Assembly: GCA_965153355.1 (NCBI GenBank)
Contig: OZ231126.1
Coordinates: 4,650,001 to 4,714,000 of the forward strand
DNA from: Flaccisagitta enflata
Lineage: Eukaryota
Length of the DNA: 64,000 nt
Reading direction: 5' to 3'
The notes beneath the pieces were generated by a model that was not told the origin of the DNA, ran no database searches, and saw nothing but the letters and a program-made list of their open reading frames with translations. This document shows, one piece after another, positions 3,930 to 55,595 of the stretch (its first letter is position 1; each line of letters starts with the position of its first letter). A program made the position numbers and the translations under genes.

Positions 3930-4056
3930 GTGATGGATTCCAGCCAAAACTTTTCCAATTCGACGGAAATAAACTCGGCTGCAGACATCGACGCTTCATT
4001 AATGCCACCGCCGCCACCGCTGCAACATAAATCCTACGCAACGGCGGCGATATCGG

Positions 4057-4087
<31 letters not shown>

Positions 4088-7227: not shown

Positions 7228-15111
<7,884 letters not shown>

Positions 15112-20660: not shown

Positions 20661-21511
20661 GATGTTTCACATGTCGCACACATTGGCCAACTTTGATTAG
20701 TTTTTCAGAAATGTTTTAAAAGAGGAAGCAATAGCTAACAGTAAAATAACTGTATCGTTCTTGATTATATCGCTTAAATGTTTGCTCATTAACCAGGTTC
20801 TTATGAGAAAAAAAATTGTCTGATTGTTCTCATGTTCAAATTCCCCCATTTCAAATATCTCAATTTTACAGGATACAAAATAAAAAAAGTTAATCTATTA
20901 TAAATTCTATGATAAAGATTTTAAAAAATATAGGATTAAAATATATTGATTTTGGAAAACTGGAGCTCATAGAATTTGGTAAAAAATTTCTTATTAAAAA
21001 TATTTTGTTTAAGAAATTATCAATTTATAAGTTTTGAAGAAATCATAATTTAGATTTGCTTATTCATATACTTATCTTGTTTCAAAGAACATCATTTTTT
21101 TAGCAAGCCTTTAATGTTCTCAAATTTTGGGCAGTCATCAGGTTTGAAAGTTTTAAAATAGTTGTTAATGTAAATGTGATTTTTATTCTTTATTTATAAA
21201 CATTTTTAACTGGTTTAAACAAGGTTGTCTTTTAAAAGAAAATGAAGGAAAATGTCAATGAAACTACAAAGCAGCAGGTTAAAATGTTTTTAATAAATAA
21301 AAAAAAAATAAAACTTGCTTTAAAAAAATATATATATATTTTATCTAGGATTATTGTCTTTATTGAAGAATAAACTCTAAGATTTTTAGTATATTTTTTA
21401 TTTATTTTGAATTTTAAAAAGATTTCAAGCTTGATATTTCAAAATTATTAAAAAAATAGTTTTCCAATATTTTTAGCTAATTTTAAAATTTTTGCAATTT
21501 TTAAACGTAAT

Positions 21512-22717
21512 TGTCGTGAAGCATGGTCTTGCACCAATTCTATCATTTCTTACGGATTATCTGGTTGGTATTTAGGCTTTAGATTTGGATTTATTAATTG
21601 ATATTTTTGATTATATTTAGATATTTTACTTAGATTTGACCGTTTTATTTAGATTGGTTTTTATCGTTTGCATTTATTACAGGTTTGATTTATTCTGATC
21701 GCATTTATTGACATCGTTTAGATTTATTGATTGATTTATTGACTCATTTATTCGTTTATTTCATGCATTTATTGATTTGTCCGTCTGATTTGTCCTTATT
21801 TCTGTCCAAATTGCTCATGTTTGTCCGTATGATATTTTCTTGCCTTGCATTTCGTTCCTGTTATGAATTCATTGCGCCTTTTGTCATTTGGGCTATTTTA
21901 GACCGATTTCGTAGCGCCCTCAATTGACCGATATTGGCATTTTTACTGGCTGACGCAATCGAACCTCGAAGGGAAATTGAAGATTTCCATAGAATTCTAT
22001 GATTTTCTAGAACCTTTCGTTGCTTAGTTACCGCCATTTTGCCGACGATATTTCCTTACAGAATCTAGAAAAGACGCTCATATTGCCAAAAACTACTCTT
22101 TCGCCTATTAAATAGACGCTTTTCACCATATTTTGCACTGATACGAGCCTTATTAGGACGCCTATTTGACTTCCCTGAGCGCCAAACAAAGGTGAGAGCT
22201 TGATTTGGGTTCATATTTCGTATTATTTTTCCCGTACTTAGCCATATTTTTCCCGTTTACGGCTTATTTTTCCCGTATTTTTGTCATTATTCCGTCATTA
22301 TTCCGTCATTATTCCGTCATTATTCGTTCAGTATTTGGTCACTTTCAGTATTATTGAGTATTTCTGGCTAGATATCTGTATATTCAGCTGCATTTTCATT
22401 AGCTCCTTTCATTTTTCACTGTCTTGCAGCTTTAACTGCTTCGCCTACGTTCAAATAAAAGAAGATCGCATTGAGATCGCTCTGTATTATTCGTGGGATT
22501 GAGGTTCAGTCACGAGCGGCGCAGCCGCATACAGGAGAGCTAGAGGCATTGGGCATTAGTTTAGTACACGACAATACAGTTAAAGCTTTTGTATCGCGTA
22601 TGCCCTGGCTCTTTTGTGTGTGTCTATTGTCGATCAGAACCGAGAAGACAAAGAACCGTTCCTAATCTTCGCTCGATTGGTGAGTATTCGACGAGAAAAG
22701 AATCAATTTGACCGACA
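21512..22717 (+). repeat. Putative 5' LTR (~1.2 kb)
   Basis: Starts TGTCG at a composition shift and ends CGACA (inverted termini). TATA-like TATTAAATAG at 22106-22115. Boundaries are unverified because there is no 3' LTR and no canonical TGG PBS. Confidence 0.55.
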
Positions 22718-22829
22718 GTCCCCCGTAAAACGGTGACCCTCGGAAGCACCCGCATTCGCACCCGTTATAATTGCACCATTTAGAAAGCTAGAAATACCAT
22801 TTCAAGGGTCTTCGTTCGCGAAGAAACTT

Positions 22830-23052
22830 GACTATTAGTCAGCCAGTCCAACTAGAATCTAGAAACTCGAAGAACCCTTCACCGGGTAATTCGGTCGCCT
22901 GTTAGTCAGTCAGCCCAACTAGAATCTAGAAACTCGAAGAACCCCTCACCGGGTAATTCGTCCCTCTGTTAGTCAGTCAGTTCACCTAGAATCTAGAAAC
23001 GACTATTTTCATCGAAGAACCCTTCACCGGGTAATTCGGGTCAGTCAGTCAG
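22830..23052 (+). repeat. Three ~67-bp tandem repeats in the retrotransposon 5' UTR
   Basis: TTAGTCAGTCAG..CTAGAATCTAGAAAC..TCGAAGAACCCTTCACCGGGTAATTCG occurs three times. Confidence 0.85.
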
Positions 23053-23242
23053 TATATCAGGTCAAGGGTATCAGCTGATTATACCTCGGTTACCGAGGGC
23101 TATCAAGCTGAGATCTTATTTGTCAAGGCAATTTTTAAAGCTCGTTTGTAGCTTTAATCTCAAAACGAATCTCGAGAGTTGGGCCTATTTTGGCACCTAA
23201 GTTCGAGTCTTTCTGCTCACCACAGAAAGCAAAACCGTCAGT

Positions 23243-26200
23243 ATGTCCGGTCTGCCGCCAGGCGCCGCGATGTACTATGACGTGCCTCCTCAGTATGACA
23301 GCCGTCATGCGAGGACGCTCGTCAAAGAGACGGCTAAGATTATTCAAGAATTTGTTCAAGCCCATGGAATGGGCCGGGATCATCCCGACGTAGAATTTAA
23401 GAAAACTGCAAATGAAGCAAGATCTCAGCTTGAAGCCAAACGCTTGGAAATGTCAGACATTTGCAATAAATTCGATAAGAAAGAAAATCAGGAAAAGATA
23501 GCTGCACAGATAGGGAAGCTTCAGATGACACTGGACGGACATCCGCCTTTCGACATACCATCACCGGTTGCTCTTGATCCCGATCTTGCACACCGTTTTC
23601 TCAACAGGATTGGTCAGCCCGTTCCGATCGATCCTCGTCCGACGTTTCCCATCGTCGTCGGACCTCCGCCGCTGCAACGTATGGCGCTGCCAATTCTTCC
23701 CGCGCTTCCGCCGCCACCGCCTCCCTCATCAGCGGTGGTGCCCGTCGCGCCTCAACAGCTCATCGCATTCAGCGACGCGTCGCGGACATCCGGTCGGTCC
23801 CGTCAAAGTGACGCCGGAAAGGAAAACGCCGGCGCTCTCGTTCCATCGAATACGGCGCCGCGACGTCTCGATTCTCTCGATCCATTACGTACCGAGTCTT
23901 CCGTCTCCAACGCTGCCGACGACGAATCTTCAGTCGCATCATCGCGCAGATCGAACAAGACTTCACATTCGGTCAAGCCCATCGACGAAGAGCCACCGGC
24001 GTCATCAGTGGCGGAAGGCGACCGAACACGGCTCAGAATTAGGTTAGAGGAATTAATGAGGAAAAAACAACAATGTGCTGAGAGGTCAAAACAGAAAGAA
24101 CAAAGATATGAACAAGAGGCCCGTCTATTGGCCCAGAGAATTCAAGCGACTTCGTTGAATACCATCGCGGGTCATGTCAATGCCGCGGTGCAAGAAGTCG
24201 AAGATCTTGTCTCAAACAATAAAACTATGGGGGCGGGTTTGAATCGTACTGAAAATTGGGTGGATAAATCATCGGCGCAGTCACTGGTCAAGTCCTCAGA
24301 TTCCATTTCAGTCGTTTCATCCAACCATTCAGACCTCAACCCTCGATCCACATCGAAAAAATCTCATTCACAGAAAGGAAAATCATCTGACCATTCCAGG
24401 GCTCGATCGCGCACCCAACAGACTCAGACCGATCGATCCGAGTTTCAGTCAATCCCTCAGCAGACTCAGACCGATCAAACCGAGTTTCAGTCAATTCCTC
24501 AACAGACTCAGACAGAGCCAATTCCTACTCGAGTCACTCAAAATAAGATTCCCCAAAGTCATTTTGCTCACGATCCCGATCAGACTTACCCTGGCCCACC
24601 TGGTCAGACCCAATTGCCCGCTCAGATCGCTCAAAATTTGACTCGATCCGGTCAACCAGATCACCCCTCCTCTTCAGACTCTGGCAGTTCAACCCTCACC
24701 GAAAGTACAATCAGACGAAGACCAAATTCACTCACTCATAGAAACGGTTCTCAGTCAAACCACGGCAGTCATGACAACCAACAATCATCCCATCAGACAC
24801 AACAATCAAACCAACATCAGACACCACCACAGGGAAGGGGAGCGGAAAAACCTGTAGGGCTCGCATGTAGCCACTCAGTAAATCGCGACCCTACCCCTGC
24901 TCAAACCCCAGCTCAATCAGATGCAGTCAGACCAAAAACTCATGTCTCCAGACCCCAACCGCCTACTTACCATGACCCAAAATTTCAGCTTCCTCCTCCA
25001 AAGCCTAGGTCACCACCCCGTCAGAATGTCAGTACATCCAGGGACCAAATTAATGTCGATTCATCTCAAACCTCACAGGCTGTTGGAGCGGGCGCTGCAT
25101 CTTACGCTCACACGGCTACGAGAAATTCAAATTCGCAATTGGCGGGTTCGTCGGTGCAAGAGGAAAGGATCGAATCCAATGGAGAAGATCTGCTCGACGA
25201 ATTCCCCATCGTAGTCGGCCTCAGCAATGGAAATACCATCACTCCAGCTGTAGGTAAGACCTCAGAGACTAGCGCCTTTGGGCGTACTATGATGACATTA
25301 TGCGCAGCAACCAATTCAAGAGAGTTTCTTAAAAACAATCGTTTGCCAGAGGACCAACGTTTCAACGGACAGCACAACGTTGACTTTGAATCAGTATTGC
25401 GCAGATTTGGCAGGGTCACAGTTCAGTCAGGGGTAGATAAGCATGAGGCTGTCTATGAACTTAAGCATTATTTTAGCGGCGACGCCGCTAAAATATGCGA
25501 GTTATATGAGAGAGATGGAGATCCAGAAACTAATCTCAAGCTAGCTATTGAGCATTTGAAACGCGAATATGGTTATCAGGCCAGATCAGCTCAGTCAATC
25601 ATAGACAGATTGTTACAGGGAGGAGCAATTCACAAAGATGATTCAGTCGAGTTTAAAAAATTCAGGATCAATCTTGAGGGAGAAGTGACCAAAGCACAAA
25701 CTTCAGGCCGAGCTAGTTCTTTCAATAACTCAGACACCATCAATAAAATAATTCGCAAAAAAGTACCCTTTGTACAACAAAGATGGGCAGTTGAGAGAAC
25801 TAAAAAGATGATGGCCATGAATCCCGATAATTTTGAACCCGAACCTCAATTTTCCGAATTTCTTACCTTTCTCCGTTCCCAGAATTTAATACGGGACGAA
25901 AATTCCTTGATCAGCGGAGAAAAGGATTCGGAGAATAAGAAAACAAAGACCAATCCTCGCGTCATGAAGATCGACACCGTCTCTTCCTCGAAAGCCGCCG
26001 ACGCCGGCGGCGCCAAAGGAGGAGGAGGAGGAGGAGGAGGAGGGAAGCGAAGAGGGAAGGGAGGAGCGAAGGCGAATAACACCACCGAGTCAGCCAACAC
26101 GCCCTCACCTCAAAACAACACCTCGTCTCCTCCAACCAACACCAACAATGAGGCAGCGATCGCCGTTAACCAAAGCCACCCGGACAATTGGCGCAATTAT

Positions 26201-26659
26201 TATCAAGGCAATAAAGGGGGAGGAATGAACAACTCCAACAACCCTACACAAACTTTCGGCTTCTCGAACCGACAAAACAACAACGCCAGTCCTCAGAACA
26301 ACAATCAGGGACGCAACAACAACAACACCAACGCAGCTACTGCCAACAACGCTGCAGGTAATTGGTCATGCCCGTGTTGTATGAAGTCCAAATACCATGT
26401 GCTTAAGGATTGTAAAAAGTTTGTTGCTTTGACTCAACCGGAACGATTCTCTGTTTTGAAAGCGAATGGAATGTGTAACAAATGCCTTGAACGCGGCCAC
26501 ATGGCCCGGGACTGTGCCACGGTAGTCGGCTGTGATCTCTGCCCGGGTAAATTTCATCATACCCTTATGCATAGAGAATTCAATAATCAGAAAAAGGGCG
26601 ACAATCAGAAAGGGGACGAATCTGATGATTCGGCAGACGAAAGCGAGAGTAACGATTGA
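23243..26659 (+). CDS. gag: BEL/Pao Gag (1138 aa)
   Basis: Long disordered N-terminus, then a capsid-like region (RFNGQHNVDF...LKHYFSGDAAK...LKREYG). Triple Cys/His boxes CPCC..H....C, CNKCLERGHMARDC and CDLC....HHTLMH. Confidence 0.92.
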   Translation: MSGLPPGAAMYYDVPPQYDSRHARTLVKETAKIIQEFVQAHGMGRDHPDVEFKKTANEARSQLEAKRLEMSDICNKFDKKENQEKIAAQIGKLQMTLDGHPPFDIPSPVALDPDLAHRFLNRIGQPVPIDPRPTFPIVVGPPPLQRMALPILPALPPPPPPSSAVVPVAPQQLIAFSDASRTSGRSRQSDAGKENAGALVPSNTAPRRLDSLDPLRTESSVSNAADDESSVASSRRSNKTSHSVKPIDEEPPASSVAEGDRTRLRIRLEELMRKKQQCAERSKQKEQRYEQEARLLAQRIQATSLNTIAGHVNAAVQEVEDLVSNNKTMGAGLNRTENWVDKSSAQSLVKSSDSISVVSSNHSDLNPRSTSKKSHSQKGKSSDHSRARSRTQQTQTDRSEFQSIPQQTQTDQTEFQSIPQQTQTEPIPTRVTQNKIPQSHFAHDPDQTYPGPPGQTQLPAQIAQNLTRSGQPDHPSSSDSGSSTLTESTIRRRPNSLTHRNGSQSNHGSHDNQQSSHQTQQSNQHQTPPQGRGAEKPVGLACSHSVNRDPTPAQTPAQSDAVRPKTHVSRPQPPTYHDPKFQLPPPKPRSPPRQNVSTSRDQINVDSSQTSQAVGAGAASYAHTATRNSNSQLAGSSVQEERIESNGEDLLDEFPIVVGLSNGNTITPAVGKTSETSAFGRTMMTLCAATNSREFLKNNRLPEDQRFNGQHNVDFESVLRRFGRVTVQSGVDKHEAVYELKHYFSGDAAKICELYERDGDPETNLKLAIEHLKREYGYQARSAQSIIDRLLQGGAIHKDDSVEFKKFRINLEGEVTKAQTSGRASSFNNSDTINKIIRKKVPFVQQRWAVERTKKMMAMNPDNFEPEPQFSEFLTFLRSQNLIRDENSLISGEKDSENKKTKTNPRVMKIDTVSSSKAADAGGAKGGGGGGGGGKRRGKGGAKANNTTESANTPSPQNNTSSPPTNTNNEAAIAVNQSHPDNWRNYYQGNKGGGMNNSNNPTQTFGFSNRQNNNASPQNNNQGRNNNNTNAATANNAAGNWSCPCCMKSKYHVLKDCKKFVALTQPERFSVLKANGMCNKCLERGHMARDCATVVGCDLCPGKFHHTLMHREFNNQKKGDNQKGDESDDSADESESND

Positions 26660-26752
26660 CTTCTTGCCGCATATGTAACCCGTCGAGGAGCAACTAGGCC
26701 TATTGTACCTGTTGTAGCTTATGTTAGTGGTAAGCGACGGGTTACATATGCG
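26657..26752 (+). promoter_or_regulatory. Stop-codon readthrough signal: UGA-C, 8-nt spacer, 18-bp stem-loop
   Basis: TGA at 26657-26659, then spacer CTTCTTGC. CGCATATGTAACCCGTCG (26668-26685) is the exact reverse complement of CGACGGGTTACATATGCG (26735-26752). Confidence 0.85.
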
Positions 26753-29700
26753 CTTCTCGATACAGGGGCGAATACCTCTGCTATCACAGAATCCCTTTGT
26801 TCAGAATTAAATGCCCCCAGAAAATTGATAAATGTTAAATTGAACACTTTTGACAATTCCTCAAATTCTAAAAGATACATAACCGATTTTAAAGTTACAA
26901 ACCTTCAAAATACCCTTGAACTGTCAGTAGAAAATGCCCTCATAGGCAGATTCTTAAGCACTGAAGGGGAGAAACCACCCTCACAGGAAGACTTAGAGCC
27001 ATTTGAACATTTGAAGGATTTGAGGATTTGTGAGCTAGAAGACAAAAGTATCAATATTTTATTAGACGCAAAATTCGCCTACTACTTTTGTACAGGTGAT
27101 AACCGCATAGGAAATTCAGATCAGCCTTTAGCCCTAGGGACCCAATTTGGCCATGCAATAATAGGACCAAAAATTACAGATGACCCCAATGAAGACGATG
27201 AAAATGACATTCAGGTTAATGATATGTTAGATATTAATGCTGAAACCATTTCCATCTCAAAATTAATAAATAGGGCCTTTAGGCAAGATTTCATCTGTAG
27301 AGATTTTGAGTTGTTTCCTCAAGAAATGACTCACAAGTCAGCAGAAGATGAAGAAAGTTTAGCTCAGATGCAGAAAACAGCCAGATTCATAGAAGAAGAA
27401 GGTAGATGGGAAATTACCATGCCCTGGCGTTTAGGCCGTCAGCCCACTGCAGATCTTTTTAGAACGATAGATTTTCTTTCCATGACAATGAACAGACATA
27501 GTAAGTTAAAAAGAAAATTTGAGCTAAACCCAACATTAAGAGAGGGCTCTTTCATTCAAATGCAAATGACATTGGACGAGGGGCATGCACGTATTATTGA
27601 TACTTTAGAAGCACCCAACGACCATGTCATTTGCTACCTCCCTAATCATGTCGTGGTTAAGCCTGACAAACCCGGAAAATTCCGGATTTGTCAGGACGCG
27701 GCAGCCAGGGTAGGTCCACATTTTTTGAACAAATATCTCTTCAACGGTCCAGATTTGTTAAATAGATTGATCAAAGTGATCCTCAGATTCCGCAGAAAAA
27801 GATACACCATTTCAGCGGATATCAAGAATTTTTTCTATCAAATTCTGTTAGACCCTAGAGATAGATCGTCCCTTAGATATCCATGGTGGAGTGATCAAAC
27901 CATGTCACGTGTAATTATGATAGAAAGTTTGCGTCACATGTTTGGAGTGACTAGCTCGCCAAATGTATCTAACTTTATCTTGAAATTACACGCAGAAAGG
28001 AACAAAGACAAAATCAGTCAGGAAGCTTATCTCGCTTTACTTGAGGCTATGTATGTTGATGATTTATTGGAGTCAATCGACGATAAAGACACAGCCCGTA
28101 GAATTAAGGCAGAGATCACAGACGTGCTTAAGAGTGGTGGGTTCGAAATCTGTAAATGGAAAGCAAACTTTCCTGATCTCGATCTTCCCTCTCTTTCTTC
28201 CCCAACTTCTCAGAATGAAACGCGCAGAGCTTCGGAACTTGCAACCCCGACATTCCATGAGACTTTGGAGGAAAATCGTCTTCAGAACACGCCAGAAAAG
28301 AACCCATCAGAAAGGAACCCATCAGAAAAGACCCCGCCAGACGAGAACCGGCAGGAGAGCGGCTGGGCCCGGCCACATTGCGCCGTCGGTGCGTCTCGCG
28401 ATCCTCGCCCTTCGCCAAACGCAGAGTACGACGAAGAGGATGAGGAAGAAGAGGGCGACGATGAATCAGAATCTCAACTCACGCCAAGCGAATTGGTGAG
28501 TTTGATGAATGACAATTATGATGAATCGTGCGCCAAACAATTCTTGAATGAATCAGACCTTGAGGATAAGGTTTTGGGCATGGGGTATAGCTTTGAGGAA
28601 GATATTATAAATGTCCGGGTTGGAAATAAAGCAGAGAGAGAAATCAAAACGAAGAAGGATCTCTTATCTTTTGTGGCTTCAGTTTATGACCCGTTGGGTC
28701 TTGTTGCGCCATGGCTTTTACCCGGCAAATTGTCTTTCCAAAAAATTAGTTCCCCTAGCATTCCCTGGAAACAAACCTTATCTAAAGAAATAAAAAGTGA
28801 GGTTGACAAATGGAAACAGACTATAGTTCACCTTAAGAAAATAAGAATATCACGCTGGACTAATCCTCTGGGTATGGAACATAGTATAACCCAATTGATT
28901 ATTTTCTGCGATGCGAGTAGATCGGGTTATGGTATGTGTTCATACTTAAGACGTCATCAAAGAGGAGCAGAGGATAAAGTCAGCGTGGTATTTCTCGTAG
29001 GAAAAGCGCATGTTGTCCCAGCCAATATGATGTTAGATCCAACTGAGGGAGCAATACCCCATAATGATTCTATACCCCGCCTTGAGTTATGCGCCGCAAA
29101 GATTGCGGCGCAATGGAGGGATACTTTGTATAGAGACTTAGGGGAAGTTTTAGATGCTGTCTTTTTGTTCTCGGACTCACTGACAGTACTCAACTGGCTC
29201 ACTAACTTTATAAAGCGCTTCAAAACTTACGAAAATTTTAGAATTAAGGGTATTAGAGCCTTGACCCCCCTTTCCGAATGGCGCCATGTGCCCAGTAAGG
29301 ACAACCCCGCCGATATATGTTCTAAAGGCCTTGGCGCAACAGACACTAAAAGGTGGTTCATATACCATAACGGTCCATCTTTTTTGTCTTTACCCATTTC
29401 CAGTTGGCCTCCCATCCGACCGAACGATCCTAACTCCAACGTGGATACTCTGGTCGCAGACGTGGGTGCCCTATCAATTCTTGCGCTGAACGGATCCACT
29501 GAAGAGCCCGAGATAATCGCCGAAAAGCATTCGTCCTCTCCTTGGCCTTTGGCCGCCACCGGTAAGATAGCCGAGTGGAGGTGGAAAGTGAGACGCATTG
29601 CTATCATTAGGCGAGTCTTATTAAAATTGAGAGAAGTGGTTAAGAATAAGAAAGAAAACCTGGTGAGTTCCAGATTGCGATCAGGAAATAATAAATCCAA

Positions 29701-31117
29701 AGAAAAATTGCGCATTCACCTAAGTGAGGAAGAAAAGGAGGCTGCTGAGTATCTTTTGATCAGATCAATCCAAAGTGAGGAATTTGAGAAAGAAACCACC
29801 AAATTAATCAAATTAGGCATTTTCTCACCTAACACTATCCACGATATGAATATCAAAGATACCAAATTAGCAAAATTATGCCCCTTCTTAGACTCACATA
29901 ATGTCATGCGAGCAGGTGGTAGAATAGCCAAAGCCGAGTATCTGCCATACAACCACAGATACCCCATCATACTTCCAAACAGCACTTCAGAACCCATTAG
30001 AGCACTTATAAGGCACTATCACCAGGCCCATTACAAAAGATTCCACTGCACCGTGCAACAAACTTACTACCTTCTGAGAACCAAATACTTCATACTTGGT
30101 GGCAAAAATTCAGTCAGAAGTGTTTTGAGTAAATGCATAGTCTGTCAGAAACTGTCAAAACGCAAGGCAGCACAAAAGGAAGGTGATCTACCACTCGAAA
30201 GGATGGCAATGGTACCCCCATTTTACCATTGTGGTTTAGATTGCCTAGGACCCTTCCATTTGAGACATACAGGCAGAAACACCCGCAAACAATTCGTGCT
30301 CATTGCATGCTGCATGTCCACTCGTGCCATTACTTTAGTGCCACTTCGCGATATGACCACCTCTAGCATCATCAATTCACTGATCAAAATCCACTCACAG
30401 TTTCCCGCCCTTAAAAATTTGTACTCTGACAATGGGTCAAATTTTAAGGGCGCAGACAGAGAAATTAGGGAAGCAGTGGCAGCTTGGAAAAAAGAGGATT
30501 TAGATGAGAGGTTAAGCGATCTGGAACTCACTTGGACCTTTGGGCCGGCCTATTGTGGTAGCGCCGGCGGTAGTTGGGAGCGTTTAATAGGATTGTCAAA
30601 GAAACTATTAAGAAGTGTAATTGGTGACAAAAACATAGATATTGAGGATTTTGAAACTTTGTTGGCAGGAGCCAGTTCTATCATGAATCGTCGTCCACTG
30701 ATGCCGGCATCGGCAGATGTAGACGACGATCAGATTTTAACTCCAAGTCATTTCCTCTATCCTTACCTATTCACTTCTGACGCTACTCATATTCTCCCTC
30801 CTCAGGCCGAACACAATCACGTCCTGAAACACGGGTGGAAGTGCTCCCAATTTCTCCTCGATCAATTTTGGCGAAGGTTCAGCACGGAATACATTCAAGA
30901 ACTGATAAAAAGAAACAAACAAAACACGACGCCTGTCAAAATAAACACGCTGGTCCTCATCGAAGACGTGGAAGCTTCGAGAGAATCATGGAAAGTCGGT
31001 CGAATAGTAGACATTCTCAACGGTGACAAAACCCACGGAAGAAGGTTTAAAATCCGATTAGCCTCTGGGAAAACTATCGATCGTCATATATCATCGTGTG
31101 TAATTCTTGAGACCTAA
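26660..31117 (+). CDS. pol: BEL/Pao Pol (aspartic protease, RT, RNase H, integrase), in frame with gag after the UGA
   Basis: The frame is open from 26660, upstream of the TTG used by the ORF track. Protease YALLDTGA (D at 26759-26761). RT YLPNHVVVKPDKPGKFRICQDAA, ADIKNFFYQI, YVDD (28052-28063). RNase H FCDAS, SIPRLEL, SDS, HVPSKDNPAD. Integrase HHCC, DCLGP, SDNGSNF, GGSWERL. C-terminal FWRRFSTEY. Confidence 0.95.
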   Translation, partial: LLAAYVTRRGATRPIVPVVAYVSGKRRVTYALLDTGANTSAITESLCSELNAPRKLINVKLNTFDNSSNSKRYITDFKVTNLQNTLELSVENALIGRFLSTEGEKPPSQEDLEPFEHLKDLRICELEDKSINILLDAKFAYYFCTGDNRIGNSDQPLALGTQFGHAIIGPKITDDPNEDDENDIQVNDMLDINAETISISKLINRAFRQDFICRDFELFPQEMTHKSAEDEESLAQMQKTARFIEEEGRWEITMPWRLGRQPTADLFRTIDFLSMTMNRHSKLKRKFELNPTLREGSFIQMQMTLDEGHARIIDTLEAPNDHVICYLPNHVVVKPDKPGKFRICQDAAARVGPHFLNKYLFNGPDLLNRLIKVILRFRRKRYTISADIKNFFYQILLDPRDRSSLRYPWWSDQTMSRVIMIESLRHMFGVTSSPNVSNFILKLHAERNKDKISQEAYLALLEAMYVDDLLESIDDKDTARRIKAEITDVLKSGGFEICKWKANFPDLDLPSLSSPTSQNETRRASELATPTFHETLEENRLQNTPEKNPSERNPSEKTPPDENRQESGWARPHCAVGASRDPRPSPNAEYDEEDEEEEGDDESESQLTPSELVSLMNDNYDESCAKQFLNESDLEDKVLGMGYSFEEDIINVRVGNKAEREIKTKKDLLSFVASVYDPLGLVAPWLLPGKLSFQKISSPSIPWKQTLSKEIKSEVDKWKQTIVHLKKIRISRWTNPLGMEHSITQLIIFCDASRSGYGMCSYLRRHQRGAEDKVSVVFLVGKAHVVPANMMLDPTEGAIPHNDSIPRLELCAAKIAAQWRDTLYRDLGEVLDAVFLFSDSLTVLNWLTNFIKRFKTYENFRIKGIRALTPLSEWRHVPSKDNPADICSKGLGATDTKRWFIYHNGPSFLSLPISSWPPIRPNDPNSNVDTLVADVGALSILALNGSTEEPEIIAEKHSSSPWPLAATGKIAEWRWKVRRIAIIRRVLLKLREVVKNKKENLVSSRLRSGNNKSKEKLRIHLSEEEKEAAEYLLIRSIQSEEFEKETTKLIKLGIFSPNTIHDMNIKDTKLAKLCPFLDSHNVMRAGGRIAKAEYLPYNHRYPIILPNSTSEPIRALIRHYHQAHYKRFHCTVQQTYYLLRTKYFILGGKNSVRSVLSKCIVCQKLSKRKAAQKEGDLPLERMAMVPPFYHCGLDCLGPFHLRHTGRNTRKQFVLIACCMSTRAITLVPLRDMTTSSIINSLIKIHSQFPALKNLYSDNGSNFKGADREIREAVAAWKKEDLDERLSDLELTWTFGPAYCGSAGGSWERLIGLSKKLLRSVIGDKNIDIEDFETLLAGASSIMNRRPLMPASADVDDDQILTPSHFLYPYLFTSDATHILPPQAEHNHVLKHGWKCSQFLLDQFWRRFSTEYIQELIKRNKQNTTPVKINTLVLIEDVEASRESWKVGRIVDILNGDKTHGRRFKIRLASGKTIDRHISSCVILET

Positions 31118-31808
31118 AGAACACAGTGGGATCGTCGACCCACAGGAGGACGCGTGTAATAGAATACTTTCATTTAGACTATGTTTTACAGTCAGTCGTG
31201 AGTTTCACATTTCAGTAATTAGTATTCCGTTAAGACCTTTTTCAAATCATAATAATTCAGTGACTTCAGTTAGAAATTTCGTTATTCATCGCTCGTCACT
31301 ATTGCCAGAACGTATTTACATACTAGGAATTCCTTATCAGTCACTTCTTGTGTCAGAATTGAATCACAGCGTTAATAAGATCAGAACGCCAAACCCAGAA
31401 AAGTCATCATCTTTACAACTTTCTGAAACTCAGTATAGCGTACTTTCGCAACTGCGAGATACTAATTCGTTAGAGCGAGATCCTACGATAGTTTATTCGC
31501 TATTACCGGTTTCTTTAGACAAAACATTTTCGGCATTCGATAATTCAAATTATACTTCTCTTATGATTCATCTTTCCATCTCGATCATTTTGTTCGAGGA
31601 GAAAGGTCGTCCATTCGATAGATACCATTCTGAAATAAAATCCTCTTTGCCTTGTCTCTCGATTCATTTTCTCTTTGTCTTCGATCGCGATTATTTTTCT
31701 CTTATTCTACTCGATTCCTTCCACTCGTGTTCAGAGAAAGTAGTCTTCCGCACTTGTGTCCTCACATGTGTTTACCGCGTTATTCATTCCGCGAAGAAAA
31801 ATAGCATC

Positions 31809-34800
31809 ATGCCTCGATCGTTTAAATCGATGCACAGTCGTCAAATTTCCGACGACGGGATCGAAGAAGAGGGTTTCGTGCCCAACACTCGATTGAGCCG
31901 ATTCGACAAAGAGCAAGAGGATAGAAAATTGAGACAGAAATATAGACTCGTCGTTGCAAGAGAACAGACGGCGAGATGGGTCGCGAAGGGAGGAGAAGAA
32001 AGTGAGGAGGAGGAGGAAGCAGTCGAAGTCGACATGGCCAATCCATCGGCCACTCGCAACGACATCATCTTCCCTACCACCGTCGACCTTGCGAACACTC
32101 ATCGCGTCGAACCTCCTCGACGACATTTTCAAATCTCTTCCATTCCCCAAGTACCTCCATTCCACTCGCGGCCAAAGTCACCGCCACCTCCTCCGCCACA
32201 TGATCCGCCGTTTGACACTTTATCGTCTCGCGCCCCTTCTCCCGTTTCCTCTATCGCTTCTTCTTCCGTCGTCTCGATGAATTCGACTCTGGTGGGCGAC
32301 GACAGTCAGTCAGGACCGGTCACTCATGTGTTCAGACCGGGGATGGCAGCCTCGGCGGTCCTGGCTGACAACGACGCTGATGATTCGAAGAAAAATGACG
32401 AGATCTCAACGAAAACCAACGACGCCGCCGCCGCCTCTCTTACTCTTCCTCCTCCTCTCAGGACGACGTCACCCCGGCCAGTCTCAAGAAAGCCGCCGAA
32501 GAAGGGCAGCCGAAGGGAAGCGGCAGTGGCAAGACCGTCTGCGTCTTCGCCCTGTCCCGCGGACCTGACGCTGACCCGAAACCAGCGGAAGAAGATTTAT
32601 CGGAAACAGAGGGAAGATGCAGAAAGAAAAGAACTGAGTGGCTTGTCGGAAGAACAGAAGAAATTAAAAGAATATCAACAGCGGATCCAACTCCAGGCCG
32701 ACAAGGACCATCTCAAGGCCAGAAGACGTCACGATCAAAGGGAAAGAGCAAGACAGAAAGCAGAAAAGGAAGGAGAAGAAAAGTTTAAGGTGGACAAGAG
32801 CGCGAAAGAAAGGCAGAAGGAAGCAGAAAAGAAAAGAAAAGAACAGCAGAAGGAAGAAGCGGAACTGAAAGAAAGGGTGGAAAAACTAAAGATGATGAAG
32901 GAAAAGTTGGTGAAAATGGGAGGAGTAGAAGAAGCGAAAGAACTAATAGAAAGAGAAATGGAAGAGGAGGAAGAGGAAGAGGAAGTAGAAATAGAAGTCG
33001 AAGACGACTGGCAAGCGATCGCCGCGGAATTCGACGTCGTTCTTCCCATGGTCAAAACCCAGTATCCAAAGCCGGGTCAACCAAAAGAAGTAAAAAGAAT
33101 AAAAGTGTCAAAGGAAAAGAAGAAAGAAAGAAAGAGAGAGGAGAGGGAAGCGCATAACGCGGCCGACCTCATCAACATTTCGGCCGAAATTTACGGAAAA
33201 CAGCCCGAAGACGACTTCAGCGAAAATGACCCGAGGGAATTGATGCGTCTCTACGATGAAGCGGACCAGGAGTGGACGAAAATCGAAGAATACCGTTCAC
33301 TCGAAGCTCATCCGACCCACACCCCACAACAACGGGCCGCCATGAGCCATGACGACCAGAATTACCTCTTTTCAGAGGTCCGTCCATGCAAGACCAAGGC
33401 CGAGGCGGAAATGCTGAAACGTCGTTGGGAGGAAGCAATCGGACCGGAAGTATATCAGTACTACCGCTCTTTCGGATGGCGCGTCCCGGATTGGCTGGAA
33501 TGGGGGAAAGTTCTCAAACTCCAAGATAAAAAGATTAGGGTAAATATCTCCGCCAATCACGCGAAAGACCTTTGTAGTCACTCAATCAACCAATCTATCT
33601 TGGTTTTCCATAGTCCCACTTTGATTTTCAATAAACTTATGTTTCTTGTTCTTGAATCCTCAATCACTTTCACAAAATTCTCATACACCCTCCAGGCGGT
33701 CTTTCGAGGCATTCTCCGTCATGCCGGGGCCACCGAGGACGAAGTGAAGGAGTTTGACGATAAATGTCATCGTGCCCTCTTCAACGATAAAACCATGATG
33801 AGTTATCCTCAAATGAACGCGCAAGAGTTGGAGTCGGCGATGCGTTACGCGTTTCGCACGGGCCACCGAACGTCTCTGGTGCTAAGCTGCAACCCTCGCC
33901 GCCGCGGTTACCAGATGAAGACGGAACTGAAATGGGACGACAAGGAGATCGACTACGATCGTCCATCGACCTATTTCGACGGCGCGACCATCCGATCGGC
34001 ACAAGCAAAGCGTCAGGCTGAAGCGGATCGGCAACGGAACGCTCGCTTCGCCCGCGATCGAGCGGCGCAAGAACGCCGCGACGCCGACGCACGAGCCGCC
34101 GAAGAAGCGCGTCGAGCCGGTTTACCAGTCATCGGTAAAAAGACTGATAATTACCAGTTGACAACTCAGCGTAAGGTTATTTTAGAAGAAGAAAAGAAAT
34201 CAAAACAGCGCATCATGAACTTGAAGAGATCGCTAGGAAAAGAACAAGAAACAAAAAAGGACATTAAAAGAAGAAAAACTAAGAACACCATCTTGAGCAA
34301 GAAAGTGAGAGAAGTGAAAGAGATAGCAGATTCACTACCTCCAGTTTTAGCTCAACAAAGAAGAGTCTTCCTCGAGGTAGTTTCAAAGGCAGATGCATCA
34401 CCCCTGGAGACCTTTGAAGAATTCCAAGAAAAATGGGAAAAAGAACAACAAAGAAAGGCAGAAGAACAAGAAAAACAAGAAAAAACAGACGAGTTAGAAC
34501 AGACCAAAGAACAAGAAGAACAAGAAAAAACAAACGAGTTAGAACAAGAAGAAACAAAGAAAACAGAACAGAGTGAAAACCAACCGAAACGAAAAGTCAA
34601 AATCAGAAGAAAAGTAGTATTACTTTCAGAACAGGTCGAGAAAGAACAACAGGCAGAAGAAGAACGAAACGAAAAAGAACAAAACGAAGAGAAACAGAAC
34701 GGAGAAGAACGAAATGGAGAAGAACAGATGGAAACAGAACAGATCGAGACAGAACAAATTGAAACAGAACAAATAGAAACAGAAAAAGAAGATACAAAAC

Positions 34801-34962
34801 AATCCGGCGAGTCAGAACAGAATGATACAGAACAAAACAATGAAGAACCAGACTTGCTAGAATTAAAAATAGGAGAGGAAGAATATGAAACATTAGATTT
34901 AGAAGAAGAGTTAGGGATTGACAGGGACATTTCCTCTCAACCTGTACAGAACAAATCGTCAC

Positions 34963-34963
<1 letters not shown>
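31809..34963 (+). CDS. Retrotransposon ORF3: large charged/coiled-coil accessory protein, not env-like; probable intron 33540-33695; C-terminus truncated
   Basis: The likely start is ATG 31809 (MPRSFKS), where composition turns coding-like. It has Pro/Ser-rich, E/K/R coiled-coil-like and acidic regions around a ~200-aa aromatic-rich core. No signal peptide or transmembrane helix once the putative intron is removed. It runs into (CT)n. Confidence 0.7.
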
Positions 34964-36270
<1,307 letters not shown>

Positions 36271-38465
36271 GTACATGGATGTGTGTTTCGTAATAAGATG
36301 AGATATGAGACCGGGCAACGATGCGTCCAGGCCGTGTCTGTGCCTGTATTGACAGATAGACAAACAGATGAAAAACAACTAAGTAGTAAAGGAGGCTCCA
36401 AAAACATGTTTGGTTGATCATTTGTTTCAGTATAGGATCTCACCGTGGCCAAAAACAGTCGAGAAACGCGGTTTTTGCACTTGCGCAACGGACATAGGGA
36501 CGGACGGACGGACGGACCAACCCTTTTATAGAGATGTGTTCCTGACGGACGCATCTAAAAAGAATGAAAAAAAGGAAGAAACAAACAAGCAAGCGAAGGG
36601 AGAAACAAAGGAAGACAGAAAAAAGAATGGAATGATGGAAGAAAATAAGAAAGAAAGATAGATATGGAGAGGGAAGAAAGAAAGAACAAGGCCGGATACA
36701 CGGCCATCAGTTGCAGACAGGTGGGCAGGGGCAGAAATGCACGTTTTACCACTTTTCGACTCAATGATTACGGACGGATTGACGGACGGACGGACCGACA
36801 GACCGACGGACCGACGGATGGACGGACAAACAAAGCCTCTTACAGAGTTGCGTGTCCGCAACTAAAAATAAGCACAAATTAAAAATGTTAAATGGTCAGC
36901 GGTACTCACTGCCTTTAACTTGGAATATGTCAGAATATGGAAGGGAGAGGGGCAATGGTTCTGAAGAGTTGAATGGCTGATCTGTTGAAGGGTTGAAAAG
37001 TGATCACAAAATTTTGTGTTCCGTCCATTCTTTTAAAGTGATTTCAAGGGAACAACTTATTGTCATGTGCACGCGACTATATAAGCCGCTATATCCATTT
37101 GTCAGTCAGTCGGTTGGTCAGTCTGTCAGACCATCGTTGACACTTTGCCTTTACAGCATTTATGGGCGTTTTTTGCTGTGCTGCTCCTGCTCAAATGCTC
37201 GATTAGCCTTTTTTATCACTGCCCCTGCTCACCCACACATTACTTGGGTAGCCTTATATCCGGCAGGGTTCAACTGTAGTCATAAAAGTGTAAATTTTAG
37301 CGTTATGATGCCCCCTTATTTAGTTGATGTAAGGATGTGATAGTAAGAGGGACGTCGGCCTTAAAGGGAACAATTGCCTGTGCGCGGCTGTGATTTGCAT
37401 TATAACCTTTAAATTCAAAATTCAAATTCATCCAGCTAGTAAAGGAAGGCAACACTGCCTGTTGACCTAGCATCAATAAGTCAAACATTCATCCTTTCAA
37501 AAAACACCCATCAAATCACAAAGGTGATGTTACCGATACAATACCATACAATACCAAAGCACAAAACCTCCGAAGAGCTCCATGGATGTCTCGTACGAAA
37601 AGATAGGCCCACGATCCAACAGAGTCCAAAGCAGGAGGTACCATTATGATAACACCAGCAATTCTACCTAAATCATCTGTGAGGGCCAGAGCGTGCGGCT
37701 CTCTCACTATTCACCAGAACCACTATCGGCTGATTTCAAATGACCTTGGTATGGGGACATAAAAGATGGCGGATTTTGGAAAACTAAATCTATCTACCTT
37801 AAATTGAGAAAAACTGTAAAAAATCGGTGACCATTTTGAAGCTCTGCGAAAGAATTTTTAAATGAGACGTTGCTGGTTGCCCTAGCTTTATCCATTTAGA
37901 AATGGCATTGGAATAAACACCGGTTGTCAGAAATTTGAGAATTCACTATAGGACTTGCGAGTTTTTTGTTTGTTGTAACATAGAAACCAAACGCATTAAG
38001 TAAAAAATTCGTTCTTGGCGCCATTTTAAAGATGATTCAAAGCTCTTTAATTTGCTCATGGATATCCGGTGGCTGTGACAATTCTATATTGCATTATTAA
38101 GAAAAACGTTGAGACAAAAATTGACAATGTTTGCCCTTTTTGGAATCGGTGATATTTTTCTTCAAACCTATGCCATTTCTAAACAAATAAAGCGTGGGGC
38201 TTTCTGGGCGTGAGGCTGAGATTTGAGCCTCAACATTGAGACTGGGATTTGGGTTTTGAGGCTGGGTTGGACCTTGAGGCGGTGATTTAGTTCTCAAAAC
38301 GGTGATATGAGCATCGTGGCCTGAATTTGACTGAAGGAAAAAAAATCTAGTCATCCAAGGATCGCAAATGGTCAGCGGTACTCGTTGCCCTGCTTGGAGT
38401 GATTTCTTTAAGTCCTGAGAAGGCACATTTGAGACCGTTGGGGCTATTTTCCATGTTATTCAATG

Positions 38466-38466
38466 C

Positions 38467-38499
<33 letters not shown>

Positions 38500-38507
38500 G
38501 TTGTTAT

Positions 38508-38542
<35 letters not shown>

Positions 38543-38605
38543 ATTTGTTTGTTCTTTTTCTTCAAATCTTCTTCTTCTTCTTCTTCTTCTTCTTCTTCTT
38601 CTTTA

Positions 38606-38636
<31 letters not shown>

Positions 38637-39090
38637 CTTCGTCTTCATCTTCTTCTTCTTCTTCTTCTTTTTTTCTTTTTCTTCTTCTTCTTCTTCTTCT
38701 TCTTCTTCTTTCTTTCTCTATTTCATTTTCATTTTCATTTCTATTATTTTCTTCTTCTTCTTCTTCTTCTTCTTCTTCTTCTTCTTCTTCTTCTTCTTCT
38801 TCTTCTTCTTCTTCTTCTTCTTCTTCGTCTTCTTCTTCTTCTTTTTCTTCTTCCTCTTCTTCTTCTTCTTCTGCTTCTTCTTTTTTTTTCCTTTTCTTCT
38901 CTTTTTCTTTCGTCTTCTCTTTTTCTTTTCTTCTTTTTCTTCCTTTTTTTTTTTTTGGCTTTCATTGTTTGTTTTTTATTTGTTTTTGTTTTTGTTTTTG
39001 TTTTTTTTGTTTTTTGTTTTGTTTTTGTTTTTGTTTTTTTTGTTTTTGTTTTTGTTTTTGTTTTTTTGTTTTTGTTTTTGTTTTTGTTTT
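38466..39090. repeat. Compound microsatellite (GTT)n / (TTC)n / (TTTTTG)n
   Basis: Directly visible. Confidence 0.95.
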
Positions 39091-39873
39091 GGTACCAAGT
39101 TGGCAAAACACTGGTCAAGTTACCTTTCTGTTTTTCTTTTACTCAGGCTGGTTGGATTGGTCGTTCATGCCCTTCATTATCATTATTTTCATGACTTGAC
39201 ATTACCAATGGAGATTCGTGTCCTTTCGCGTGCATGCATCCCTTTTCACATCAAATTAAAGCGACATATTTGTTACAGTTTTGAACACAAAAAAAAAAAG
39301 ATGTTTACTTTGGACATTGTGTCCTTATCATCGTAAAATTGGGAGGTGCATATTTAGAGTCTAGTCTACCTGCAAAATAATTTTCAACATGATCCTTGCA
39401 GAACGTCATTGTATAGAGAAAAAGTCGGTATTAAAGCGAAAAAAAAAGTTGTGTTTTTTTCGTTTTTTTCCCCACTACATCAAGTCGTGAACTGAACTGA
39501 CAATGAAGGATGAAAAAAGGTAATGATCCAGGAATTCTATCTTCTCTCAACCAATGAATACAAAATGTAGCGTGCTGGTGAGCGGGGACTGTATTTGGGC
39601 AGGAGTAGTGAGGCCAAAGAAAAAAAAACAGAAAATAGTAAAAGTGTAACTGACCAACTGAAAGTCGGATGGACGGACGGACAGACAAAGTGGGTTGTAG
39701 AGTCGCGAAACTCACACCTAAAAAGAGAAAAAATCATGACTTTCAAATCTTGAAACATTAACAATTATTGGCTATGCAAAGACTATCTTTGATCACAGGA
39801 GTCTTTTGTGCTTGTACTGCCGTATGCTATTCCGTAGGTGACTGTCTTTCTTGTTATTATCATTATTATCACT

Positions 39874-39983
<110 letters not shown>

Positions 39984-42329
39984 CGTTGTTTGTCGTTGTT
40001 AATGACCTATGCTTTCACACATAGGGGAAATTTTTCCGGTCTTTTTTCAATGTACCTTCCTACGTGTAATGCGCAGGGGTGTATGAAAATGAGCGGCCTT
40101 TGATTTCTTTTCCCCCTGGCATTGGATTTTTCTTCCCCGCCAGGTCGTAAAATTGTTTGATTTTCTATCCCATAGAATATAAATATAGTATGAATATGGT
40201 CAAAATAGTGTTGAAGTAACCAAATACTATCTTTTGGTACTGCCAAAAGTGTAAAATCTTCAAAAAAATTGTCTTTTCTTTTTATCCACCCTTTGTCCTT
40301 TCACTCCTTTGATATAGGAACGTTCGCACATCAGATTGTGAAGTGATTAGGTGGGAAAAAAAGTTGACTGATTTTTTAAACGACCAAACAGACAATGAAA
40401 ATTTTAGAAAAGAAAAGATTAATTAATCATTTTGCTTGTCTAGTATTACGTAGAAACGACCAACAGAATCAGAATGTCATTTTTCAGCGAGTAGAAATAA
40501 GTGAGGTTTAGAGGAATGATACTTGTAACAAGGCCGGATACACGGCCACCAGTTGAGGACGGATGGGCAGGGGCGGAAATGCGCGTTTTCAAACTTTTTA
40601 CCTCGATCATTACGGACTAACGGACCGACGGACAGACCGACGGAGGGACCGACGGACGGACCAATGGACAAAGCCTCTTACAGAGTTGCGTGTCCGCAAC
40701 TAAAAAGCCCTGTACTCCAACAGACATATAGTTTCAACCTTGTTGATTCTAGATCTGGTTTCATTTTTATTCCGATCTCATCCGAAGCAACGCGATCATA
40801 ATAAGAAGACAAAGCATCTCCTAACAAATCCAACACTTATAAGTCGCTTGCGAGACTAGACATTTAGAAGGCTGGTGTCATGCTAAGCCAACTGAGGACG
40901 GGTGGAATTCGTCAATTTTACATGTTGGAAAATTGAAGAAAATCATACATCATTATGTAGCCTAGCTATCATTACATATGGATCCATACTTGGATTTTCT
41001 TAAGTACGCTCATTTTTCATGCAAATTAGGCATAAAAAGGTACTATGGGCAGTTTTATTACTAAAGAATTTAGCTAAATACAATAAAGAAATCAATATGA
41101 CTGTAAAATTCTTATTGATAACGTTCAAGCAATCATGTGTGATCATTTGTTGCTAAGAAATTTTGAATTTTTTAGTTTTTTAAAAAAAATCTCTATAAGT
41201 ACCATTTCTGGCTGGGTGGGCTGTTGGAGAAAAATTGTTTTACCCAAGCGCTTATTCAAGTCAGTGATGAGGAACCTTTAAAGAAAGCTTCATGCAAAAT
41301 TTCAACCAGATCGGACAATTATTATGGAAGTTATGCCATTTTTTAATTTTTTCATCTGGTAGGCTGGTTGGTCTGGTCGGACTGCATAACATTTTTTAGG
41401 TCGCATCAGAATCTAGGCAACGGACCCTTTTGGTCTAGGTATGACAGCGTCCCCCCGAAGGCAACATTTGTGTTTCAAAGAGGGTCAAAATGGAAATTTT
41501 GAATAGATGGAAATAAAAAAGTAAGTGAATAAAAGTGATTCGGATAGCTCAGACATAATATTTAAAAGAAAAATTTGCATTCATTTAGCAAGAAGGGTCA
41601 AGTTTAACCAATGTCACTAAAAAAATTTATTGAAAATTTCTATTTTTTTTTCATTTTTGGTCACTGACAGGGGGCTGGTCTAAATTCTAATTTGCATAGA
41701 AAATGAAAATATTAAAAAACAAAGAACATAGTTCTCATCCCAAATCAATTACAGAGAGAATTATGTTTTTCAAAATGCAAAATTTCCATGTGTATGGCTT
41801 TCTTAGAATTTAGACCACTTTAAATAAAAAAAAAATCTAAGCAGAAACTTGCTAAAATTGTAGGTAAACGCCCTAATTCTTCGAGGCGCTAAAATGTCGC
41901 TAGAGAGCAGAAAAACGGAATGGAACCATTTTGGATCTTCCCTTGCAAAGCTCCAAAAACCGTTAAAAATGCTTATATGAACCAAGGAAAGTATGATTCT
42001 GAATGCTGACGACACGAGCTATTGATTGGTGTAAGTTTTTAAAGCCAACTATGAGAACAAGATATTGTTTTTCCTCTTTTCTTGCTTTCCTGACTTGTTA
42101 CTGCGATATGCGAATATGAACTTTGATGTATATGGGCTCAATAGATGCAGTTTCGTTTTTTCTTTCAAATGAGACCTTTCCGAAACTTGAGATCAGCCCC
42201 ACGCGGCCTCACGAATGATATTAAGACGACTCTTATCTGCTCGATTTTCCGTAGTTTTCTTTCGCGTTGTTTGGTTAACCGCATAAGCTACTTCACTTCA
42301 CATGAATGAAAGAATCAACTGTGGATCGT

Positions 42330-53571: not shown

Positions 53572-55595
<2,024 letters not shown>

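Follow-up and report, generated by a model that had tools for sequence, protein, structure and literature searches.

The DNA analysed in this study is a stretch of 64,000 nucleotides (nt) from the marine animal Flaccisagitta enflata (assembly GCA_965153355.1, contig OZ231126.1, positions 4,650,001 to 4,714,000 of the forward strand), hereafter called the window. It contains an incomplete copy of a BEL/Pao retrotransposon, whose gag-like and pol open reading frames (ORFs) are followed by a third long frame, ORF3. ORF3 is the subject of this report. It has the marks of a conserved gene, differs from the envelope (env) genes described after pol in other BEL/Pao elements, and is interrupted by a proposed intron. 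All coordinates are window positions. In a stop-to-stop ORF listing of 24000-38000, three long frames succeed one another on the plus strand: 23201-26659 (1,152 codons), 26660-31117 (1,485 codons), and 31104-35057 (1,317 codons).

ORF2 (26660-31117, plus strand) is, by its predicted domains and 67 relatives, a BEL/Pao (Belpaoviridae) pol gene, in which protease, reverse transcriptase, RNase H region, and integrase are arranged in that order. Along its product (P0003), Pfam matches were obtained for gag-asp_proteas (residues 29-73, weak), RVT_1 (371-503), Peptidase_A17 (664-840, 7.7e-35), Integrase_H2C2 (1114-1166), and, at the integrase C-terminus, DUF5641 (1393-1482, 2.5e-15). The C-terminus of pol appears natural: most of the full-length relatives listed end within about 10 residues of the same ...LE[LTM] position, and some are 10-25 residues longer. 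The relatives range from 98% to 24% identity. All those of at least 34% originate from assemblies of metagenomes or runs ('ena' or 'lgn'); the identity of named relatives reaches only about 30%. The family call comes from pol; the copy itself is incomplete and without a pair of long terminal repeats (LTRs).

ORF1 (23201-26659, plus strand; ATG at 23243) is gag-like. Its N-terminal part is long and of low complexity, and zinc knuckles lie towards its C-terminus, where a CX2CX4HX4C motif and a second Cys/His motif, as expected of a BEL/Pao gag, were read off the translation. Pfam gave no match for ORF1 at E <= 0.01, the BEL/Pao gag model DUF1759 included. The frame ends with a TGA in frame with pol. 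A perfect 16-bp stem begins 9 nt after it (26669-26684 with 26736-26751), and the stretch 26657-26776 has a minimum free energy of -45.7 kcal/mol (z -3.71; 0 of 200 shuffles as stable). The TGA and the stem look like a stop-codon readthrough signal for gag-pol, of the kind known from murine leukaemia virus and alphavirus. The stop just upstream of pol seems to be conserved, because pol relatives from at least six lineages start at one shared M-A-A-x-V-G position. In contigs of sequencing run X2, 4-nt insertions (GATC and CGAT) occur in gag at 25167 and 26156 and would shift the frame in those copies. Among the 12 insertions or deletions listed of 22, ten are in the non-coding stretch 21800-23200, two are in gag, and none is in pol or ORF3.

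The two ends of this copy differ from those of a complete element. Upstream of gag, the stretch 21800-22677 (plus strand) has a contig word depth of about 6,000 in run X1, versus about 850-1,000 over gag-pol, and runs X2 and X3 are alike. The roughly 6-fold depth suggests that 21800-22677 is a candidate 5' LTR, the left edge of which possibly lies beyond 21800. No second copy of it was found within the window. No primer-binding site and no LTR ends were seen by eye. The window has no tRNA genes, and 21000-37000 has no Rfam family. Downstream, the element, ORF3 included, ends abruptly at a (TC)n microsatellite (34964-35186, assigned to neither strand; 111 copies by Tandem Repeats Finder), and the last 31 codons of the ORF3 frame (34965-35054) are this microsatellite translated as Leu-Ser. 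One relative, P0017 (about 88% identical over the aligned parts), goes 69 residues beyond QNKSSR, where the window turns into the microsatellite; hence, ORF3 of this copy is 3'-truncated at 34964. Nothing of these 69 residues was found in the window by tblastn.

The ORF3 frame opens at 31104, 14 nt before the pol stop and on the same strand, and stays open to 35057. An earlier note on this DNA had described more than 1,000 open codons after integrase and had set the ORF at 31809-34963. The length is borne out by the 1,317 codons that follow the BEL/Pao pol, and the ATG at 31809 is present. The limits need revision, since the frame is open from 31104, has an earlier ATG at 31563, and has a tail coded by (TC)n. 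The strings quoted in that note are at the expected places: LTRNQRKKIYRKQRE at 32571-32615, KKDIKRRKTK at 34254-34283, the EQIET repeats at 34737-34784, and, for the core, NYLFSEVRPC at 33360-33389 and WDDKEIDYDRPSTYFDG at 33933-33983. The ATG at 31563 has a weak context and that at 31809 has an A at -3; the product from 31809 comprises 1,082 residues (P0004). The preceding 705 nt (31104-31808, plus strand), which include the ATG at 31563, form a stop-free leader. They contain 0 stops versus 11.2 expected, and 12-22 stops occur in each of the other five frames; not one of 20,000 Markov simulations was free of stops. The open frame of ORF3 is far beyond chance. Codon usage is not coding-like over 31104-31562 and is weakly coding-like over 31563-31808. 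The depletion of ATG in the leader is not significant (3 observed versus 5.9 expected, P 0.16). The leader may be an exon that is joined by splicing to sequence further upstream, or it may be translated without sequence constraint.

The core of ORF3 (33246-34010, the intron-coded part included) was searched with HMMER against 1.84 billion representative proteins. Ten matches of 32-80% identity were obtained, seven of them at E <= 1e-10 and three at E <= 1e-30, and no named relative was found among these representatives. Three matches, all of them unnamed metagenome proteins from ENA assemblies (contigs of 814-4,694 nt), were obtained in a word-index search that used the part downstream of the intron. 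P0009 and P0011 are open frames of 287 and 500 residues. Their identities to the window are 59% and 46% over the core query, and 53% and 43% over the exon 2 stretch, respectively. Both align with the window through a conserved block (block B), the helix after it, and a conserved stretch from NYQL to FEE; P0011 aligns additionally at an acidic Leu-rich motif near the end. Among proteins of 595-1,894 residues, none was found when the core region was used in a word-index search. JGI metagenome contigs and viral contigs yielded no ORF3 relatives, and the pol clade is likewise absent from viral contigs. ORF3 has no similarity to gag or to two other long frames of the window (1487-3496 and 3891-4604). 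With codon usage trained on pol, frame 0 is favoured in every exon segment of ORF3 (0.09-0.23 per codon versus at most 0.005 elsewhere), and this preference is as strong as that of gag or stronger. The relatives and the codon usage argue strongly that ORF3 is a genuine conserved gene and not a chance frame.

Two exons are proposed for ORF3. Exon 1 (31809-33539, plus strand), drawn from codon usage and the relatives of block A, comprises an acidic and basic N-terminus, a Pro/Ser-rich part, a Lys/Glu/Arg-rich helical part, and the conserved block A (about 33216-33539), in that order. Block A is common to P0007, P0010, P0012, P0013, and P0015. Exon 2 (33696-34964, plus strand; broken off at 34964) was aligned with P0009, P0011, P0008, P0014, and P0017. 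It starts with block B (33696-34028), which is followed by an Arg/Ala-rich helix, a conserved helical part, Glu/Gln/Lys-rich repeats (34437-34802), and a conserved acidic Leu-rich motif (34845-34922). The basic clusters of ORF3 (residues 429-443 and 806-823) have no conserved counterpart in P0009 or P0011. In the window, the acidic Leu-rich motif departs from the strict export-signal pattern, to which P0011 has one fit.

The proposed intron is a phase-0 intron of 156 nt (GTAAAT...CTCCAG; 33540-33695, plus strand). Its donor is AGG/GTAAAT and its acceptor is CTCCAG, and its GC content is 0.37 versus 0.55-0.61 in the flanks. Of the four distant block A relatives, P0010, P0012, and P0013 lose likeness directly after KIR, and P0015 remains similar for about 10 further residues; each of the four frames meets a stop 2-23 residues past KIR. 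The block B relatives (P0008, P0009, P0014, and P0011; 4/4) begin at the 3' end of the intron or later. The splice of 33539 to 33696, which had been a guess in the earlier note, matches the points where the likeness of the relatives stops and starts. In the close copies P0006 and P0007, the GT...AG interval diverges faster than its flanks. The identities of P0006 are 132/154 in the exons versus 23/42 in the intron remainder (Fisher 5.6e-5), and those of P0007 are 87/108 versus 20/34 (p 0.02). These comparisons support a position-conserved intron at 33540-33695 between the two conserved blocks. A marine metagenome contig of X3 (record 24) spans 33541-33907 without a gap; thus, DNA copies retain the intron. 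The intron is free of in-frame stops in the window, P0006, and P0007. The stretch that it would encode is hydrophobic (hydropathy 1.74), as is, elsewhere in the frame, only the Leu-Ser run that the microsatellite specifies.

The first 30 nt of the intron (33540-33569) differ from its remainder. When translated, they are identical at 10/10 and 9/10 positions in the close copies, which is above the exon level, and at 7/10 positions in P0015, the most distant relative, whose block A is identical at only 30/104 (Fisher p 0.013). No stable local fold was found in this stretch (z -0.67). It is a candidate splicing-control element. Two joints in DNA contigs were set aside. The joint from 32782 to 34462, with GT..AG ends and a side of 21 nt, is a repeat artefact lying in Glu/Lys-rich repeats. 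The joint from 33570 to 33689 was rejected as an intron-less copy, as it lies inside the intron and does not coincide with the intron ends.

The exon-coded product of ORF3 is highly charged. Glu, Lys, Arg, and Asp account for 40.6% of its 1,000 residues, and only four residues are Cys. The maximum 19-residue Kyte-Doolittle mean is 0.89 in the exon-coded sequence and 0.28-0.61 in the relatives. No signal peptide or membrane anchor, as would mark an envelope protein, was found in exon-coded ORF3, nor by eye in the 69 additional residues of P0017. ORF3 is considered not env-like, because it has no membrane-type segment and is 41% charged. Pfam gave nothing for ORF3 (E <= 0.01) and no meaningful match for any of the 11 aligned members. 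The PDB sequence search gave 0 matches, and the profile search gave one chance match (E 5.1). The best Foldseek match against the PDB had an E value of 1.8, on a low-confidence model. In the ESM Atlas, the best score for the core was 0.78, and P0009 had no usable match. By these sequence and model searches, ORF3 matches no known glycoprotein, env, or host family. The earlier note had described a non-env third ORF after the BEL/Pao integrase, with neither signal peptide nor transmembrane anchor, and had named a core matching a known env or a neighbouring host gene among the outcomes that would contradict its reading. The relatives, the hydropathy maximum of 0.89, and the absence of a match in Pfam, PDB, Foldseek, and the ESM Atlas are all in line with that description.

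Structure was predicted with AlphaFold2. The model of the core with the intron-coded insert had a predicted local distance difference test score (pLDDT) of 48 and was unusable. For 33696-34430, the pLDDT was 64, and the model was confident only for two long helices (residues 95-141, about 78-88; residues 152-213, about 90). A globular-looking core of about 200 residues had been proposed for ORF3. It consists of two conserved blocks split by the proposed intron, and its fold is predicted at low confidence. When two copies of residues 90-220 of the exon 2 construct were modelled together, an antiparallel coiled coil was formed through residues 151-204 (window 34146-34307, plus strand), which is the conserved helix. 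The ipSAE of the homodimer model was 0.60, versus 0.00 for the best of three controls. Three runs shared at least 77% of the contacts, the partner pLDDT was at least 74, and the contacts were antiparallel with a spacing of 3-4. In the calibration of the complex score with microbial proteins, the mark was reached by 21 of 30 solved pairs of one chain and by 0 of 23 single chains. With eukaryotic proteins, 17 of 29 pairs reached it (7 of 16 for animals), but only 1 of the 7 that had no older solved relative did so, and none of 30 single chains. The model supports a pairing of the helix at 34146-34307 as an antiparallel homodimer.

ORF3 probably belongs to the BEL/Pao element. Its place inside the element can only be inferred, because this copy is cut at the (TC)n at 34964 and no 3' LTR is present in the window. 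One contig of X1 (record 7) runs from pol (30659) to 31459, that is, across the pol end and into the leader, at pol-like depth. Pieces of ORF3 occur in X1, X2, and X3 (three runs, two studies) and are 0.3-4.4% off the window with 0 gaps. Because the pieces vary in this way, several ORF3 copies exist. The identity of the ORF3 relatives falls from 80 to 32% much as that of the pol relatives does.

A different reading places ORF3 outside the replicating unit. It would then be a multi-copy host gene, or the gene of another repeat, beside or fused to a 3'-truncated BEL/Pao copy; alternatively, it would be a recently captured host gene fragment that keeps its genomic intron. For a gene copied via an RNA intermediate, an intron is indeed unusual. 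Further observations weigh against ORF3 as part of the element, or against the account of it given here. No direct repeat or LTR pair flanking 23201-35057 was found in the window by self-BLAST. At 90% likeness, the DNA depth of ORF3 is below that of pol in X1 (about 240-800 versus about 850-1,000), X2 (112-480 versus about 800), and X3 (3.7-12 versus about 25-60), which amounts to about 10-50% of the pol depth in X2 and X3. Either ORF3 is missing from many copies, or it differs by more than 10% in them. None of the 80 more distant BEL/Pao loci on metagenome contigs (27-37% pol identity) has an ORF3 relative, and in typical distant members the 3' LTR follows 170-260 nt after pol (L003 and L058). 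The RNA reads are uninformative on expression and splicing: 3 of about 12 million (about 6% of run X8) matched, partly and at repeats. Blocks A and B are mostly at pLDDT 35-74 in the AlphaFold2 models, and their folds are of low confidence. Coiled coils are readily modelled as pairs, and the calibration is weak for eukaryotic proteins without solved relatives. Finally, the listed variants (40 of 658 differences) include nine in the ORF3 frame, which are too few to measure selection. Against a place outside the replicating unit, the frame opens 14 nt before the pol stop and is stop-free for 705 nt up to the ATG, unlike a chance neighbour. The contig of X1 crosses the pol end at pol-like depth, and no joint is listed from about 31500 to the LTR-like stretch. 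No named host-like homologue exists among the 1.84 billion representatives, and the identity of the ORF3 relatives declines much as that of pol does. An origin outside the element is regarded as unlikely, and ORF3 is taken as a probable part of it.

ORF3 could also extend Pol at its C-terminus. If reading shifted by +1 within the 14-nt overlap (31104-31117), a rare Gag-Pol-ORF3 fusion would arise, the tail of which would steer the integrase or the particle. This arrangement would account for a frame that is open from the pol stop, without a stop and without a well-placed ATG for 705 nt, and for an intron that is open in this subfamily (the window, P0006, and P0007). Several findings make it very unlikely. 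No stable RNA fold occurs downstream of the pol stop (z +0.27; 116 of 200 shuffles as stable), in contrast to the strong stem that follows the gag stop. The codon usage of 31104-31562 is not coding-like, and six of the seven listed leader variants change the residue. The frames of the four distant relatives stop 2-23 residues past the donor. An open run of 52 codons arises by chance about 4 times in 100.

That ORF3 is a diverged envelope-like or membrane-fusion gene, as in Roo, Tas, Cer7, and Anakin, is highly improbable: env genes of BEL/Pao elements usually lie where ORF3 does, after pol, as far as the available text of the source shows (PMC7642597), but the exon-coded sequence has no signal peptide and no membrane segment (maximum 0.89), it has 4 Cys in 1,000 residues, is 41% charged, and matches nothing in Pfam, PDB, or Foldseek, and the relatives are equally non-hydrophobic. 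A frame that is open by chance or by low-complexity composition and codes for nothing can practically be dismissed: much of the sequence is of low complexity (Glu/Lys/Gln/Pro/Ser) and stop-poor in one frame, but relatives at 32-65% identity retain the two blocks and the C-terminal half, the exons are better conserved than the intron, and the codon usage is frame-specific.

The reading favoured here, with fair confidence, is that ORF3 is a lineage-specific accessory gene of one BEL/Pao clade in a marine animal; its product would be spliced, soluble, dimeric, and intracellular. A mechanism can be drawn from the anatomy of the gene, because there is no homology to serve as a guide. Two RNA forms would be needed, since the intron sits in a gene of an element that is copied through RNA. 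The full-length unspliced transcript would serve as genomic RNA and as gag-pol message. The spliced message, with 33540-33695 removed, would encode a protein of about 1,000-1,100 residues that is soluble, rich in charged residues, and for the most part helical. It would pair through the antiparallel coiled coil at 34146-34307 and would work inside the cell. It may be an oligomeric adaptor, of which blocks A and B and the charged flanks would bind the RNA or the particle of the element, or a host nuclear factor, and which may help to balance spliced and unspliced RNA. An intracellular adaptor is favoured among the roles, because the protein appears soluble, very charged, largely helical, and probably dimeric, with two conserved blocks and an acidic Leu-rich end. 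The adaptor role itself is a tentative proposal, possible though doubtful. We know of no accessory regulators in BEL/Pao elements. The trans-activator, RNA export, and anti-silencing roles suggested in the earlier note are conjectural. A more specific version is a Rev-like circuit, in which ORF3 would be made from spliced RNA only and, as a dimeric RNA-binder, would recognise 33540-33569 of its own intron and restrain splicing or promote the export of the unspliced genomic RNA. We regard such a circuit as quite unlikely; if true, it would amount to a switch by which a retrotransposon family autoregulates the retention of its intron.

Extra genes after pol have been described in several retroelements. 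In the available text of PMC7642597, the extra ORFs of the BEL/Pao elements Roo, Tas, Cer7, and Anakin are envelope glycoproteins taken from viruses or Gypsy (PMC7642597), which agrees with what the earlier note had stated of the known cases. ORF3 shares with them a BEL/Pao host element, a position downstream of pol on the same strand, and probably a spliced message. It differs from them in the lack of a signal peptide or anchor, the few Cys residues, the high charge, and the lack of a match to a glycoprotein family.

Non-env extra genes are known from other elements. The bdelloid clades with an ORF3 are of the Ty3/gypsy type, and plant Ogre elements carry a spliced intron. The LTR retrotransposons of bdelloid rotifers have non-env ORF3s of the GDSL, DEDDy, coiled-coil (CC), and TM types, which, according to the available part of the source, are typically separate transcription units expressed from spliced messages (PMC5408684). 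Like ORF3 of the window, they are family-specific non-env ORFs after pol, and the 'CC' type is among them. They have no sequence relation to it, the representative search having given only unnamed metagenome proteins, and an intron inside the ORF is not mentioned in the available text, where the word 'intron' has 0 occurrences (PMC5408684). In plant LTR retrotransposons, additional ORFs (aORFs) of unknown function lie in sense between pol and the 3' LTR, and roles like those of retroviral accessory genes have been proposed for them in the accessible part of the source (PMC7264820). ORF3 corresponds to an aORF in being on the sense strand, directly after pol, and conserved in relatives; the 3' LTR is absent in this copy. 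The plant aORFs belong to Ty1/copia and Ty3/gypsy elements and have no homology to ORF3.

The earlier note had likened the element to a complex retrovirus. This likeness holds for the gene layout only, because non-env ORF3s are known in other LTR retrotransposons, as far as the accessible text describes them (PMC5408684). As with Rev, Rex, and Tat, the gene lies 3' of pol, an internal intron would have to be spliced, and the genome would be kept unspliced; basic clusters are likewise present in ORF3, as is a conserved C-terminal motif that is acidic and Leu-rich. Unlike them, ORF3 is ten times larger and has no homology to them; its basic clusters are not conserved among the relatives, and the strict export pattern, which the motif of the window does not fit, occurs once in P0011. 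The likeness to Rev, Rex, and Tat is thus an analogy of layout.

Other BEL/Pao loci also carry long frames after pol. Two metagenome loci, L017 (2510-4804) and L009 (9031-10560), have long frames at or just after the pol end that are Pro/Ser/Gln-rich and charged and have no Pfam match, as in ORF3. Their pol is 29-30% identical to that of the window. Their third frames reach a best E of 0.018 with ORF3, which is compositional, and an E of 0.063 with each other; neither amounts to detectable similarity. Among the BEL/Pao loci with at least 900 nt after pol, 10 of 24 contain a frame in this stretch that stays open for 150 codons or more; eight of the ten were scanned with Pfam. Five of the eight resemble the gag or protease of a next copy (DUF1759 in L011, L046, L051, and L065; Asp protease in L038), and three (L009, L017, and L054) are without a Pfam match. 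No description of a non-env third ORF in BEL/Pao was found in word searches, which covered open-access texts only. An additional sense ORF after pol is already known; the BEL/Pao host element, the orphan protein family, and the position-conserved intron in the ORF are new.

Other features of the window lie apart from the element. An open frame at 12502-13146 has a match to the fibrinogen C-terminal domain (PF00147, 1.1e-08); it is probably a host gene exon and is indicative of an animal genome. The long open frames 1487-3496 (669 codons) and 3891-4604 (237 codons) lie in a GC-richer, A-skewed stretch; they are Gln/Pro/Ser-rich and had no Pfam match. Very long microsatellites occur in 34964-36266, 38442-40000, 54637-55378, and elsewhere; two of them are (TC)n with 110 copies, one is (TG)n with 87, and others are runs of (TTG)n and (CTT)n. 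The element breaks off at one of these microsatellites.

It is through extra genes that retrotransposons acquire new lifestyles, and those described so far in BEL/Pao all encode envelopes. The intron of ORF3 has been kept in position through deep divergence despite copying via RNA; hence, the element must control its own splicing. Complex retroviruses solve the same problem with Rev-type proteins. If ORF3 is borne by the element and spliced, it would offer a simple invertebrate system for the study of intron retention by a retroelement and of the action of a non-env accessory protein, and it would represent a new protein family, so far found in metagenome-derived proteins only.

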